A stretch of DNA of 64,000 bases, taken from the NCBI GenBank assembly GCA_047602425.1, contig JASGHG010000001.1, forward strand, positions 992,001 through 1,056,000, read 5' to 3'. This DNA comes from Nibricoccus sp. (lineage in GTDB: Bacteria; Verrucomicrobiota; Verrucomicrobiia; Opitutales; Opitutaceae). Both the position numbers and the translations under genes were made by a program. This document shows positions 1 through 63,730 of the stretch, in pieces. The notes below the pieces were generated by a model, which searched no databases, had not been told where the DNA came from, and was given only the letters and a program-made list of their open reading frames with translations. Each line of letters opens with the position of its first letter. The first letter of the stretch is position 1.

Positions 1-218
1 GTAGCGCGATTTCGCATTTCTACGGCCGCTTCCACCAAGCGATCTGTATTGTATCCTAGGCCCTCGACACGCAGGTCCACAACGTCCGCACAAGGGAACA
101 CTCGAAAGTAGTTCGGCTCTGTTTTTGCGCCCTCGCAAACTACGAGAACGCGAGTTCGCGGAGCTAGGCGAGCGCTACGTCGAAATGCCGACCCTGATTT
201 TTCCCATGGCTTAGACAT
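1..218 (-). CDS. rloB: RloB-family protein, N-terminal part (runs off the window edge)
   Basis: Manual translation from ATG at 218: MSKPWEKSGSAFRRSARLAPRTRVLVVCEGAKTEPNYFRVF... The VCEGxKTEPNYF segment is the RloB signature. The start overlaps the stop of the AAA ATPase. Not in the ORF track. Confidence 0.8.
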   Translation of the reverse strand, partial: MSKPWEKSGSAFRRSARLAPRTRVLVVCEGAKTEPNYFRVFPCADVVDLRVEGLGYNTDRLVEAAVEMRNRA

Positions 219-1483
219 CAGGCAAGAGATCGCGATCCGTTACCATGAATTCACCAATGAACGGCACTGCGCCAAACTTACCCAGGAGATAGTCTTTAGA
301 AAATGAAGCATCCTTCCGGATGCGTTCACCGTCAGAACGATAATCTGACAGCGAATAGAGATGCGTTGCTTCCGCACGGTCTTTTTCGGTGAACCAAATT
401 TGGTCGCGACGGAAAAATTTGTTCGAAAGGAGATTTACGTCGTGAGTCGCAAAGATCAGCTGAGCACCATTGGTGTTAGTTGGACCTTGGAAAAGGCTGA
501 CCAAAAAGCGTGTCATGAGCGGATGCATCCGGCTGTCGAGTTCGTCAGCAACAACGATTCTTCCACGGGACAATCCATCAATGAAAGGTGCCAACAGTCC
601 GACAAAACGGATTGTACCAGCTGATTCATCGTTCAGAAGATCAAACTCCACCTCACCGATGGGCTCCTGCTTTGCAGAATACTTGTAATGAATCGTCTTG
701 ATAGTGCCGTCCGTAGGGCGGATAGGTGCCCCTGTAGCGGACAGCAGATCTTTATCCCGCTCTGGCATCTCAACTCGCAATCTTTTGATTGTAAGATCAG
801 CAGCCCTGAGCATTTCCAAAGCACGAAGGTAAAACTCCTTTGTGCCCAAGCGTTGAGCCGTACGTCTTACGCTGTGGCGGTAAATCCGCGGCTCACGAGC
901 TACGGTGATTCCTGCTACTGCGTCCAACGCGCGCGAAGCAACCTCGCTGTTGAATTGCGCGCAAACAGAAAGGAAAGACGCGTTTGGACGAGTGCGTTCC
1001 GCCAGTTCCTTTCCCTCTCGGAATCGCTCTGGGTTACAGTTAATTTCATCGCCTTCGCGCGTAAACAGCATCGCCTCACGAGACGATGTCGCCTCAAAAA
1101 GCCACTCTGCATGCACCCGCTTGCTTGAGACTTCCAATCCGTAGCGATATCGGGTGCCATTTTGGGCTACCTCGACCTCAAAAAATGAAGGTTTGTTTTC
1201 AGTTTCGTCGCAGAGTCGAAACGGAGTAACTTCAATCTCTGATTCGTGTTGCGCGCCAATTGCAGAAAAATAGGCAAAATCTGAGACAAACCCGAGGCCG
1301 AGCAGCATATTCGACTTACCGCTCCCGTTTGCACCGTAAAGCGCGATCCGAACGCAGGACAGTGTCTTCGTTGGAACTAAACGTGTTTGTGTCGCGATGC
1401 TCACTGTCCCCAGAAGCGCGCAAATCAAGTACCATACGATCCTTGATCGAGCGAAAGTTACCTATTTCGAATCGGAGGAGCAT
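211..1483 (-). pseudogene. AAA_21/AbiEii-type (RloA-like) ATPase with a frameshift near 1349 (pseudogene or sequencing error)
   Basis: Walker A YGANGSGKSN, ESAGT signature, Walker B VVADELD, and FATHD. The typical N-terminus MLLRFEIGNFRSIKD starts at ATG 1483 in another frame and joins if one base is removed at about 1348-1349. Confidence 0.8.
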
Positions 1484-1702
1484 GATGCGAACTGTTACTC
1501 AATGTTTAGTAATTTAACAGCCGAAATTCATAAATTCGTGATTATTTCTCGTAAAAACAGGTTTAAATCCGTTTCAAGAAGCCGAAACATAAGCCAAGGA
1601 ATCAAGTTCCATATGCAGTCCAAAAGATCCCAGTCGGTGACGTCACGGTCGCCAAGGACGTCATATCTGGACTGGTCGACTACCCGCGTGAATTCGACGG
1701 CA

Positions 1703-1736
1703 CCAAAAGCCGAAGCAATTTAGCTCCGGCTTTTGG
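1703..1736. terminator. Intrinsic terminator, probably for the 126-aa gene
   Basis: CCAAAAGCCG-AAGCAATTTAGCTC-CGGCTTTTGG inverted repeat with T runs on both strands, about 20 nt after the stop at 1757. Confidence 0.65.
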
Positions 1737-1756
1737 TTTCTGAACTACGGACTGAC

Positions 1757-2137
1757 TCAGGCCGCTTTTACGAGGGCCGCGGGATCTTTGTCGGGCCGGA
1801 GGGACGGGCGCTTGCGCTCGGATTCGCGGGTGCCGCCCGCTTTTTCATACTCGTTGCTGTCGAGGCCGTACTGGGCGGCCACCGCCGCGAGCATGCGCTT
1901 CGAGAAAGCGCCGGCCTTGCGTTCGGCCACTTTCATCAGGTTGCGGGCCTCGTCGGCCTGCGAGAGCAGCGTGTTGTAGGCGTCCTGCCGGGCGCGGGCC
2001 TCCTCGATCGTCGTCTTGAAGGCCGCCAACGAGTTGCCGGCCCCGAGGTCGAGCGTGGGGTCGATCGACTCCATGCTAGCCGCGCGGGCCGCGGCGTTGA
2101 GGATCATCTTGGACGTGGTTTTTTCGATACGTGACAT
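1757..2137 (-). CDS. Conserved-looking small helical/coiled-coil hypothetical protein (126 aa)
   Basis: GC-rich coding-like ORF with its own terminator. Motifs IDPxLDLG and YGxDSxEYEKAGGxRxSERKR resemble, from memory, a widespread uncharacterised family. Confidence 0.75.
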   Translation of the reverse strand: MSRIEKTTSKMILNAAARAASMESIDPTLDLGAGNSLAAFKTTIEEARARQDAYNTLLSQADEARNLMKVAERKAGAFSKRMLAAVAAQYGLDSNEYEKAGGTRESERKRPSLRPDKDPAALVKAA

Positions 2138-2221
2138 GGTTTTATTTGGTTATTTTTCGATCCGCCGGCCGGCCGTGCTTGGCCAGTTCCCATCGAATCT
2201 TGTATGCGTCCATCTTAGCAG

Positions 2222-2252
2222 GGAGGGTGGGTCAAAAACTGTCCCACCCTCC
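2222..2252. promoter_or_regulatory. Palindromic operator-like site upstream of the 126-aa gene
   Basis: GGAGGGTGGGTCA-AAAAC-TGTCCCACCCTCC (12 of 13 positions paired). A TAAGAT -10-like hexamer lies on the minus strand at 2214-2219. Confidence 0.45.
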
Positions 2253-2360
2253 AAAAAAATCGCGTTTTCGTCCGAAAAACCGCCCTTTTCTCGCAAGTCG
2301 CGAGCGCTGCGAGGAGTTAGACCTGAAAATAGTTTCGGCGACGGGAAAGCTGCAGTTAAG

Positions 2361-2462
2361 CCACAGAGCGCACCGAGCTCCGACACAGAGATCACAGAGT
2401 AAAAATTTTCCGGATCTTCAAAACTCCGTGTACTCTCGTATTCACTCCGTGAACTCTGTGGC
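2361..2462. repeat. CACAGAG/CTCTGTG REP-like inverted repeat element
   Basis: Left arm ccacagagcgcaccgagctccgacacagagatcacagag; right arm ctccgtgtactctcg...ctccgtgaactctgtgg. Related copies at 48501 and 54148. Confidence 0.7.
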
Positions 2463-2517
2463 CCACTGCCGAATGCGGGCTCGGACTACGCCGTTCACTC
2501 TACCTAGAATCTTGAGG

Positions 2518-2832
2518 CACGATACCGAGAACCCACTTCACGGTGCCGCTAAGTCGCTTTTCAGAACCCTAAACCGACTTCACGATACCGGAAACTCACT
2601 TCGCAGTAGCGAGAAGTCGATGCGAGGTACCGAAAAGTCGATTCACGATACCCAAAAGTCACTTCACCGAACCCTGAACTCATTTTTCGGTACCGCAAAG
2701 TCACTTCATGGTACCAAAAACCTACTTCGAGGTACCGAGAAGTCGTTTCACCGCACCGCGAACTCACTTCAACGAACCTTGAACCGACTTCACGGTACCA
2801 AAAACTGGCTCTCAGGTTCTGAAAACCCGTTT
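2518..2832. repeat. Tandem array of about 15 degenerate 21-bp units, consensus CACGGTACCGAAAAGTCACTT
   Basis: Units fall in exact 21-nt register at 2518, 2539, 2560 ... 2812. The rotated consensus ACTT-nn-CGGTACCG-nn-AAGT is palindromic. Confidence 0.9.
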
Positions 2833-3033
2833 CGCCAGTCCACGCCGGAAGACATTTCGGTCCGCACGATCTTATCTTGTTACTCGTCTGGATCCGGGAG
2901 GCAGAGTCACCGCATCGTCACCGTGGCGACAAGAAGGGGCGTAAAAAACGCTTTCCTTAACGGGCCGGAATCCCAACCGTTCAGAGGCGTCGTGATTTCT
3001 CAATGAATTCCGCGAGGACACGGCTTCACCATC

Positions 3034-3975
3034 ATGGCCCGGAACATCCGCAACTATTCTCTCCTGCTTCGCAGCTTGTTTTTCGCCGGGAGCCTTGTGC
3101 TGGCCGGTTGTACCTCGGTGAAAAAGGCCGCGGTCAATCAGGTCGCCGACGCGCTGGCCAGTGGGGGCACGACGTTCGCCGCGGACGACGATCCGGAGCT
3201 CGTCAAACAGGCGGTGCCATTCAGCCTGAAATTGATGGAAAGCCTGCTGAGCGAAAATCCGCGCCATCAGAAACTGCTTTTGGCGACGTGCAGTGGTTTT
3301 ACCCAATACGCTTTTGCCTTCGTGCAGCAGGATGCCGACGAGCTCGAGGCCACCAACTATGCACAGGCCGAGGCGCTGCGGCGGCGCGCGAAAAAACTTT
3401 ATCGACGCGCCCGCGACTACGGTCTGCGCGGGCTCGAAGTGGCGCACGCCGGCTGGACCGCCCGACTCGCGGCCGATCCACGCACCACCTTGAAAGCCGC
3501 CACCAAGGCGGACGTGCCCCTGCTCTACTGGACGGCCGCGGCCTGGGGCTCGTACATCTCGGCTAGCAAAGACGAACCATCCGCCATCGGCGAAATGGTT
3601 CAAGTCGAGGCGTTGATCGATCGCGCGCTCGAACTCGACGAGGCCTGGGGCGACGGCACGTTGCACAGCATGCTCATCACCCTCGAAATGAGCCGCACGG
3701 GCGCGGCGGGCAAACCGGAGGATCGTGCGCGCGCACATTTCGACCGGGCGGTCGCGCTGGCCGGCGGTGCGCAGGCCGGACCTTGGGTGACGTTTGCCGA
3801 GTCGGTTTGCGTCGAAACGCACAACGCCGAGGAATTCCAGCGCTTGCTCGAACAAGCGCTCAAGGTCGATGTCGATCAAAAGCCTGAATACCGGTTGGCC
3901 AATCTCGTGCTGCAACGTCGCGCACGCTGGTTGCTAAATCGCAAAGACGATCTCTTTTTCTCACCTCAAAAATGA
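3034..3975 (+). CDS. TRAP transporter TatT (T) component, lipoprotein
   Basis: Lipobox LAGC; DDDPELVKQAVPFSLKLMESLL; helical TPR-like body; first gene before dctP and dctQM. Confidence 0.85.
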   Translation: MARNIRNYSLLLRSLFFAGSLVLAGCTSVKKAAVNQVADALASGGTTFAADDDPELVKQAVPFSLKLMESLLSENPRHQKLLLATCSGFTQYAFAFVQQDADELEATNYAQAEALRRRAKKLYRRARDYGLRGLEVAHAGWTARLAADPRTTLKAATKADVPLLYWTAAAWGSYISASKDEPSAIGEMVQVEALIDRALELDEAWGDGTLHSMLITLEMSRTGAAGKPEDRARAHFDRAVALAGGAQAGPWVTFAESVCVETHNAEEFQRLLEQALKVDVDQKPEYRLANLVLQRRARWLLNRKDDLFFSPQK

Positions 3976-5011
3976 ACGCTCCGCGCTCACTCTCTTTTCT
4001 GGTTCGCCCATTTCTCACACTCACGAGTGTCGTTCTTGCGCTGACTGCATTCTCGGCGCAGGCGGCACCGACCACGTTTAAACTCGGCACGCTCGTGCCG
4101 GTCGGGACGTCCTACCACAAAACGCTGATGGCGCTCGGCGAAACCTGGAGTCGCGAATCAAGCGGCGCCGTTTCCCTGCGCGTTTATGCGGGCGGAAAGT
4201 CCGGCGGCGAGGCGGAGATGGTCGCGCTAATGATGGCGAACAATCTTCAAGCGGCATTGCTCACCGCGGTCGGGCTGGCCGAGATCGATCGCAGTGTCAC
4301 GAGCCTGCAATATATCCCGATGGGGTTTCACAGTCTCGACGAACTCGACTACGTTTCTACACGCCTTCAGGGCGATCTCGAGGAACGGCTGCGCAAGAAA
4401 GGCTTTATCGTTTTGTTTTGGACCGACGCGGGCTGGATCCGAATTTTTTCGAAGAAGCCCGTCTCTTTTCCGGACGACCTGCGTAAGCAAAAAGTATTTT
4501 CCTGGTCGGGCGAACCCGAGCAAAGAGCTGTCGTGACGCTCGCGGGTTTTCAACCCGTGCCGCTGGAGACGGACTCGACATCGTGCCTGGACTTCAGACC
4601 GGCCTCATCGAAGCGGTTTCGCTGCCACCGTTTTTCGCACTGGCGAGCCAGGTCGACACCCGCGCGTCATATATGCTGGACTTGAACTGGACGCCGATTG
4701 TCGGTGCCTGTGTGGTGTGGAAGGACGCTTGGGAAAAACTGTCTCCCGAGCAGCAAAAGACTTTCATGGAATCCGCTCGCAAGGCCGGTCAGGAGATCAA
4801 AGCCGCGGCGCGGCGCGAGAGCATCGAATCAGTGGCGGCCATGCAAAAGCGAGGCCTCAAAGTCACACCCGTGACACCCGAAATCGAAAAAGAATGGCTG
4901 AAAATGTCTGAATCGGTCTATCCCCAAATCCGCGGCAAGGTGGTGCCGGCCGAAATCTTTGACCGCACGATGTCGTTGCTTGAGGAATATCGGAGTAAGA
5001 ACGCAAAGTGA
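3972..5011 (+). pseudogene. dctP: TRAP substrate-binding protein DctP split by a frameshift at about 4572-4577
   Basis: ORF 3972-4685 gives the N-terminal DctP part (KLGTLVPVGT...). The C-terminal part (DIVPGLQTGLIEAV...) continues in another frame to the stop at 5011. Confidence 0.8.
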
Positions 5012-48390: not shown

Positions 48391-48540
48391 GTAGGGACGG
48401 GCCGCCGGGCCGTCCGTCAACATCGCCAACCCAAAATCGCCGCACCAACGGCCCCGGCCACTGCCTTGTCCCTTTCCCTAAAATTCACGGTCCCTTCCGT
48501 CCTCTGTGACCTCTGTGTCCGCGCTCCGTGCACTCTGTGA
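48391..48540. repeat. GTAG REP-like hairpin and CTCTGTG half-element
   Basis: gtagggacgggccgccgggccgtccg; cctctgtgacctctgtgtccgcgctccgtgcactctgtga. Confidence 0.6.
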
Positions 48541-63080: not shown

Positions 63081-63258
63081 TCATCCTCATAGGCCGAACC
63101 AATGACCTCGGATGGCGATGGGCTTTGCATCGACTTATGACCATACCGCGTCGGCTCCTGCTGTCGTCGTGAAGCCCAAAACCAAGCGACCACCGATTTG
63201 CCGTTGGCCAGGGGATATCGGTGGTCGCGAGGAGCAAATTGCTGATCAAAGTGGAAAG

Positions 63259-63730
63259 GCCGACACTTCGAGTGCGAACGCCGACGCTTTGAGTGTCGAC
63301 GTCCACGCTTTTAGTGTCGGCGTCGAAGGTTTGAGTGACAACGTCGGCACTCTGATCGCCCTCTCTGGCCGTTGGAGCACCGGCGTCGGCACTTCAAGGG
63401 TCAACGACGTCACTTGGAGTAGCGACCTCGCTGCTCCAATCAGCAATCGTTCCACTACAAGCGCCGTGTTTCCTGTTCAAAGCGTCGACGCCGACACTTT
63501 AAACGAGAAATTTCTCGCTCAGAGTTGCGACGTCCGCATTCCAAGTGGATCCTCGGCAGAGAGACTGTCGGGTTCGGGAGAAAAAGTACCGAAATCGCCA
63601 CCCTAAACATCGAGTTCAACGGAAAAAGTGTCGGTGGCGCGATTTTCAGCGTCGGACTCCGCAATCGACAGGTCGATTTCACGGAGTAAAGAGCCATCGC
63701 CGCCGTTGGAAGTGTCGGCGTCGATGGAAA
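63259..63730. repeat. Degenerate 21-bp tandem array, consensus GTCGACACTTTGAGTGTCGAC
   Basis: About 14 units in register from 63259 to 63552 (e.g. gccgacacttcgagtgcgaac, gccgacgctttgagtgtcgac). Weaker units at 63626-63730 are shifted by 1 nt. Confidence 0.75.

Follow-up and report, generated by a model that had tools for sequence, protein, structure and literature searches.

A 21-bp periodic DNA array is coupled to the gene of a small helical protein in several bacterial phyla

Several described systems pair a centromere with a protein that binds it, parC and ParR being one such pair. Others are tubC with TubR (PMC6009700) and sopC with SopB (PMC2910045). The module that we report here, found in a 64,000-nucleotide stretch of a Nibricoccus sp. 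genome (the window), resembles these plasmid and prophage centromeres in that a tandem array lies by a small protein gene and a promoter, with cooperative coating and self-regulation predicted. Unlike the centromere systems, it has no NTPase partner, is hardly ever found on plasmids or phages, and gave no HTH or RHH match in fold searches, which returned generic helical hairpins, while it does have a long coiled-coil helix and a period of 21 bp that is fixed across phyla although the sequence is free. No ParA, ParM, or TubZ NTPase was a conserved neighbor in the 80 loci that we compared (the best of at least 571), and the local neighbors are RloA and a TRAP transporter. The module also differs from an iteron origin: it has no Rep gene, its protein (P0001) matched no Rep initiator family in Pfam, NCBIfam, or PHROGs, and the P0001 gene was found in 1 of 72,556 plasmid records (1.2 Mb), in 0 of 50,697 phage records, and in no viral contigs.

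Other described systems resemble the module in how they are distributed. As in REPIN-RAYT (PMC3116915), a single gene lies by its own palindromic repeat, several gene-repeat types occur per genome, and there are gene-less intergenic copies. The module here differs in matching no tyrosine-transposase family or fold (neither P0001 nor 36 family members matched the HUH/Y1 family), in forming a phased tandem lattice of 200 to 400 bp rather than a hairpin doublet, and in having few gene-less copies, 0 to 2 per array tested. It is like SsnA-NTS (PMC11893778) in that each member of a small protein family has its own nearby repeat, but SsnA is described there as a GIY-YIG nuclease, whereas the P0001 model is all-helical and has no nuclease match. 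The BrickBuilt MITE of Porphyromonas gingivalis is a dispersed intergenic minisatellite that likewise has short units (23 nt) without spacers, and PMC4596501 gives it IS5-like terminal inverted repeats, no cognate gene, and a genus-limited range. In contrast, no such ends were seen by eye in the arrays here, which are coupled to a gene family across phyla.

CRISPR, TIGR, and VIPR arrays, with periods of 60 to 79, 18, and 5 nt in the accessible text of bioRxiv 10.64898/2026.10.21.760802, are also periodic arrays coupled to a cognate protein gene. Unlike these, the module here has no repeat-spacer alternation, RNA signature, or effector fold, and neither P0001 nor its immediate neighbors matched a Cas or Nop-domain effector family. 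A period of 21 nt is not among the bands given in the available part of that preprint, which filtered some multiples of 3. Our analysis suggests that in its mode of action the module would come closest to a centromere and the protein bound to it, and it is distributed like REPIN-RAYT or SsnA-NTS, without the defining genes of these systems. It is not described in the literature that we searched, which included analogs in the available text of PMC4679880 and PMC4596501 and lay mostly outside subscription journals. Passages of two 2026 genome-language-model preprints contain no "21-nt" array, although the supplements could list such clusters. We conclude that the module is real and that it is undescribed in the searched literature.

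The array occupies positions 2515 to 2829 (no strand assigned) and consists of 15 quasi-palindromic units of 21 bp arranged head to tail, as identified by lag identity, a profile derived from its own units, and a dyad test; an array of the same type is present at L167, a homolog locus. Between positions 2500 and 2840, identity at lags of 21, 42, and 63 was 0.57, 0.56, and 0.62, versus 0.15 to 0.35 at all other lags from 1 to 63, and the array forms the lag-21 peak of the whole window (0.65, with a window mean of 0.29 and a standard deviation of 0.046). The profile gave 15 consecutive units scoring +13.8 to +26.2 bits with flanks at or below -7, and the ends are sharp. A sequence-only reading of this DNA had proposed about 15 units in exact 21-nt register, and these lag identities and unit scores bear it out. 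That reading had also proposed a quasi-palindrome centered on GGTACC; the symmetry holds (dyad z of 5.1 against column shuffles, with five exact copies of GGTACC), but the consensus is specific to the local subfamily. One dyad axis lies in GGTACC and the other in GAA-N5-TTT. Variation among the units is scattered over many columns, and a higher-order repeat of 105 nt (5 units) is present inside the array. Elsewhere in the family, the L082 array is an exception to strict register, its steps changing from 21 to 20 nt part-way.

P0001, a helical protein of 126 amino acids according to its ORF, a structure model, and family sequence statistics, is encoded on the minus strand at positions 1757 to 2137. 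A conserved 5' leader (2138 to 2211, minus strand) is common to two paralogs and two metagenome relatives. Next to it lies a predicted extended -10 element, TGnTAnnnT (2212 to 2220, minus strand), whose T, G, T, A, and T are invariant in 5 of 5 leaders, and immediately upstream of this element sits a conserved inverted repeat (GGTGG...CCCACCCT; 2222 to 2252, no strand assigned), a candidate operator that all 5 aligned leaders retain. A canonical -35/-10 scan called no promoter at the predicted element; it lies between array and gene and is likely an extended -10 promoter, and on that reading the array would sit upstream of the transcript in the local subfamily. The cassette ends in a terminator-like hairpin (1702 to 1737, minus strand), and a similar hairpin with a T run lies 3' of the gene at L167 and at one paralog. 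The gene had earlier been credited with its own palindrome and terminator, and gene, palindrome, and hairpin are all present, although a terminator scanner did not call the hairpin.

The L167 locus, whose protein is 74% identical to P0001 and whose neighbors are different, shares its GGTACC array, leader, and terminator with the window, and the two stretches resemble each other from the array to just beyond the terminator. Array, leader, gene, and terminator recur in this way as a unit, or cassette, in differing neighborhoods. Missing from the L167 cassette is an unrelated inverted CACAGAG multicopy element (2360 to 2462, no strand assigned), present at 34 places in the genome, which lies between array and gene in the window, was overlooked by the sequence-only reading, and is a later insertion that does not belong to the module. 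The window holds two further copies of this miniature element, near 48500 and 54280, and a simple pattern search found no GxxExxY-like ORF within 700 bp of any CACAGAG element. Tracts with a 7-nt period (G000:4192526, 4669886, 2844509, and 1589222) form a separate repeat class.

Relatives of P0001 were found in at least 571 genomic stretches, the best 80 of which were used as loci, and 74 of these had sufficient upstream DNA. We scored a locus as coupled when a span of 126 nt in the 1 kb upstream of the homolog had a lag-21 identity of at least 0.5. On this measure 48 of the 74 loci were coupled, or 47 without one 3-nt microsatellite, with enrichment at lags of 21 and 42 only; coupling is not universal, since 27 of the 74 fell below the cutoff. 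Control windows farther upstream or downstream gave 0 of 67, 2 of 65, 0 of 78, 0 of 75, and 0 of 72, and in the same-genome background 55 of 3238 other ORFs passed the lag-21 test. Among metagenome loci, of which 16 of 23 were used (7 were left out as partial or near-duplicate), 15 of 16 passed at lag 21 or 42, or 14 without one 7-nt microsatellite, compared to 0 of 15 downstream. Coincidental adjacency, which the sequence-only reading had allowed for, is therefore not borne out (47 of 74 versus 0 to 2 of 65 to 78), and the pairing of array and gene is not coincidental. The coupling also rules out an ordinary VNTR, and the array is, as first suggested, not a CRISPR either.

Within the same taxonomic family, 8 full-length, correctly oriented homologs gave 1 clear array, 3 weak signals, and 4 without signal (L084 and L091 were left out of this count), and a clear array was present at 3 of 6 divergent homologs. 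Arrays were found at all four close paralogs in the genome, one of them degenerate and one displaced by an insertion sequence. The displaced array lies 2.6 kb from its gene; the insertion that separates them (G000:3987200-3989590) has an 8-bp duplication and sits at the gene-proximal array end, and from its ends and ORFs we take it to be IS66-like. In the paralog at G000:3647136-3647466 the reading frame shifts near codon 92, and all that its strongly degenerate array retains in register is a GTA(C) core. Across the family, arrays were alike in 13 of 14 pairs at 80% protein identity or above, in 3 of 5 at 70 to 80%, in 2 of 22 at 60 to 70%, and in at most 5% of the 1087 pairs below 60%. Common descent alone would also yield array likeness that tracks protein identity.

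The P0001 model (pLDDT 86) has helices at residues 10 to 25, 37 to 90, and 95 to 99, and the hydrophobicity of the long helix, which spans 54 residues, peaks at the coiled-coil periodicity of 3.5. Both ends of the protein are basic, with an N-terminal arm and a C-terminal GGxRxSERKR motif; among 89 family sequences, 76% had an N-arm charge of +3 or more, 96% had the C-terminal motif, and 98% had an acidic middle. Residues Y54, Y97, R18, D62, and S94 are almost invariant in the family. P0001 had no significant match in Pfam, NCBIfam (36 members scanned), PHROGs, PADLOC, or PDB sequences, no profile match to PF19775 (DUF6261), and only clusters without names as Atlas neighbors. Family scans and fold searches gave no nuclease, transposase, or recombinase. 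The fold searches returned generic helical hairpins only (best Z 7.4, rmsd 2.0, 65 aligned) and no known DNA-binding fold, and such generic matches do not prove a new fold. Fused or longer forms of P0001 numbered 0 among 7999 candidates, which is weak evidence.

Relatives of P0001 among the best 80 of at least 571 occur in Cyanobacteria, Chloroflexota, Bacteroidota, Acidobacteriota, Desulfobulbales, and others. The gene is nonetheless patchy, being present in 15 of 150 genomes of the same taxonomic family, and the genome studied here contains 4 close and 2 distant further copies. The cassette is flanked by RloA and RloB on its left and by a TRAP transporter operon on its right. RloA (window 211 to 1428; AAA_21, E of 2e-29; best PADLOC match AbiLi, E of 5e-79) and RloB (1 to 218; E of 3e-5, partial) are possibly an abortive-infection pair unlinked to the module. 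That array and gene adjoin an RloAB pair had been noted at the outset, and both genes were indeed identified, but they are not part of the module. We rejected RloAB or any other partner gene as a member, given that the P0001 gene has no conserved neighbor and the largest common neighbor cluster covers 4 of the 80 loci. On the right-hand side, a DctP-like gene is divided between ORFs 3972-4685 and 4583-5011, in what resembles a frameshift at window positions 4583 to 4685.

Family-wide, the 21-nt period is kept and the unit sequence is not: across 35 nonredundant arrays, unit consensuses from different loci were unrelated (9.35 versus 9.22 of 21 matches). Dyad symmetry was significant (p<0.05) in 19 of the 35, and the other 16 were not significantly palindromic. 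Over 39 arrays we found a shared AA-N5-TT-like core, with A/T pairs at +/-3 and +/-4 of an on-base dyad axis (A/T z of 5.3 and 5.3, conservation z of 2.9 and 4.1). This core first came to notice among members of this set that had been chosen for their dyad symmetry; in 13 independent arrays it replicated modestly (A/T z of 3.1 and 1.8, conservation z of about 1), and it was absent in 19 other arrays of the same genome, 4 of which are tied to relatives of the P0001 gene. Some arrays have almost uniform units and others contain block duplications of 42 or 105 nt, and among paralogs the leader changes more slowly than the arrays do.

About 30 period-21 arrays are present in the genome. About nine precede genes of small helical proteins, from either the P0001 family or families of 170 to 260 amino acids without a Pfam match, and the rest are gene-less. 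One gene-less array of a different sequence type lies in the window itself, at 63176 to 63527 (no strand assigned) between convergent genes; its type also occurs at G000:405957-406310 and at L124 and L126 and is shared with the congener G056, and no cognate gene was found for it. A further gene-less type, nonpalindromic and up to 38 units long, occurs four times (G000:2084733, 3866512, 4543329, and 4822997), and two of these arrays are 95% alike over 184 nt, which suggests recent copying. Small helical genes without a Pfam match but with their own 21-bp array upstream lie at G000:917954, 1770269, 3344097, 5057255, and 134593 (L114 to L118). The model of one array-linked protein, of 223 amino acids, has long helices and some resemblance to DUF6261 (TM 0.51), and its C terminus aligns weakly to the P0001 family (probability 14%); these families and DUF6261 may possibly form one superfamily.

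Among the gene-less arrays there are copies of gene-linked ones, with profile correlations of 0.86 to 0.95 (null 99.9% point, 0.54). In the 223-amino-acid family, the gene-less copies are colinear with the gene-linked array unit by unit (0.74 to 0.77 in register versus 0.46 to 0.62 off register), and gene-less copies stop at nearly the same points as gene-linked arrays. Such copies were found for 2 of the 9 P0001-family arrays tested, and in a Chitinophagaceae genome the gene-linked array has two gene-less copies; the array at 2515 to 2829 had none in its genome, the L063 array had none, and for the L001 array only the paralog was found. One gene-less array of another type occupies a gap between two conserved genes, and two congeners have gaps of 81 and 195 bp at this place; three further gene-less arrays and the locus at 2515 to 2829 had no synteny for such a comparison of filled and empty sites. 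By eye, we saw no terminal inverted repeats or target duplications at 15 array loci, at the cassette ends, or in the one filled/empty comparison. The module and some arrays appear to be mobile.

We propose, at a probability of roughly 0.5, that a P0001 dimer coats its own lattice of two helical turns within a mobile accessory cassette, binding being a prediction. A protein-loading array, as the sequence-only reading had put forward, is thus still the interpretation that we favor. The array would work as double-stranded DNA, with one P0001 dimer for every two helical turns, and the distance between units would be set by an antiparallel coiled coil of the 54-residue helix. At 1.5 Å per residue such a helix measures about 80 Å, and 21 bp of DNA measures about 71 Å. 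The two basic parts of the protein, its arm and its GGxRxSERKR tail, may grip A/T steps, and the variable flanks would give every protein its own array; arrays made protein-specific in this way would drift together with their proteins. Upstream of the promoter, a coated lattice of about 300 bp could regulate its own gene, and it may also supply a nucleoprotein handle to the cassette and to arrays copied away. The cassette would spread as one unit.

We weighed this binding model against four other explanations, of which one takes the copying of arrays to be the purpose of the system. P0001, alone or with a host enzyme, would copy or mobilize the array as RAYT does for REPINs, with gene-bearing cassettes autonomous and gene-less arrays their dependents, and DNA binding would be compatible with this. 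Colinear gene-less copies with near-identical ends, the occurrence of gene-less copies for 2 of 9 family arrays, the congener gap filled by a gene-less array, the five near-invariant residues of P0001, and a gene that is patchy, multicopy, and without a conserved neighbor all fit a selfish element of this kind. We nevertheless consider it unlikely: the searches turned up no family or fold of a nuclease, transposase, or recombinase, inspection by eye revealed neither terminal inverted repeats nor target duplications, 7 of 9 arrays, that at 2515 to 2829 included, lack a gene-less copy, and gene-less arrays would also be expected from gene loss after cassette insertion. Alternatively, a process with a 21-nt step, such as slippage or repair around a bound protein, could amplify local sequence into functionless units. 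Units unrelated between loci, near-homogeneous arrays, block duplications of 42 or 105 nt, and arrays that outpace the leader in turnover among paralogs are what such a by-product might look like, but amplification of arbitrary DNA would not be expected to produce dyad symmetry and a common A/T core. The degenerate paralog array that keeps only its GTA(C) core in register and the preserved unit order between copies about 75% alike also count against it, and we regard this explanation as quite improbable.

The sequence-only reading had itself raised a structured RNA and a heptad-repeat peptide as alternatives, and neither fared well. If the array transcript formed a long imperfect hairpin that binds protein or yields short RNAs, the local array would be a suggestive case, with a stronger fold on the gene strand (z of -8.6 versus -4.8 on the other strand) and an excess of G.T over A.C (30 versus 8), and at some loci the array ends just 30 to 70 nt before the start codon and so could be transcribed. 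Folding on both strands is, however, expected of any dyad-symmetric repeat, and the promoter predicted in the local subfamily lies downstream of the array. Over 39 arrays we saw none of the marks of a structured ncRNA, type III antitoxin arrays included: dyad-related positions showed no compensatory change (Stouffer z of -0.37), G.T was not in excess (762 versus 790 A.C), and folding had no strand preference (gene strand better in 22 of 39), so the symmetry looks like a property of duplex DNA. Rfam gave no match near threshold, and we regard an RNA role as very improbable. A peptide that pairs with the long helix of the protein is harder still to credit and has almost no claim on our belief. 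It would draw on a period equal to seven codons and on the stop-free frames over the array that had been pointed out earlier and that we confirmed, a plus frame open across it (2131 to 3006) and a minus frame of 68 codons (2561 to 2767). Family-wide, by contrast, open frames occurred in 19 of 35 arrays versus 21.8 expected from column shuffles, 16 of 35 had stops in all six frames, there was no period-3 pattern (power of 0.064 versus 0.100), and 20 homologous array pairs showed no consistent codon-phase bias.

A wider and doubtful extension of the binding model is that these loci represent a new class of minimal two-part element in many phyla, in which a coiled-coil ruler protein would assemble on a programmable two-turn lattice and drive its copying to new sites without known transposase chemistry, and several helical families that look unrelated would share the 21-bp geometry as many orthogonal pairs per genome. 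A noncoding period that stays exact in Cyanobacteria, Chloroflexota, Bacteroidota, Acidobacteriota, and Desulfobulbales, although the sequence itself varies freely, is indicative of a physical ruler. The candidate for that ruler is the adjacent protein of 120 residues, which has relatives in at least 571 stretches, none of which bears a name in Pfam, NCBIfam, PHROGs, or PADLOC. If the predicted binding is true, it would mean a new DNA-binding fold together with a natural library of orthogonal protein-array pairs, and it would account for a common and so far unexplained class of 21- and 42-bp intergenic arrays, many of which have been miscalled as heptad-repeat ORFs.
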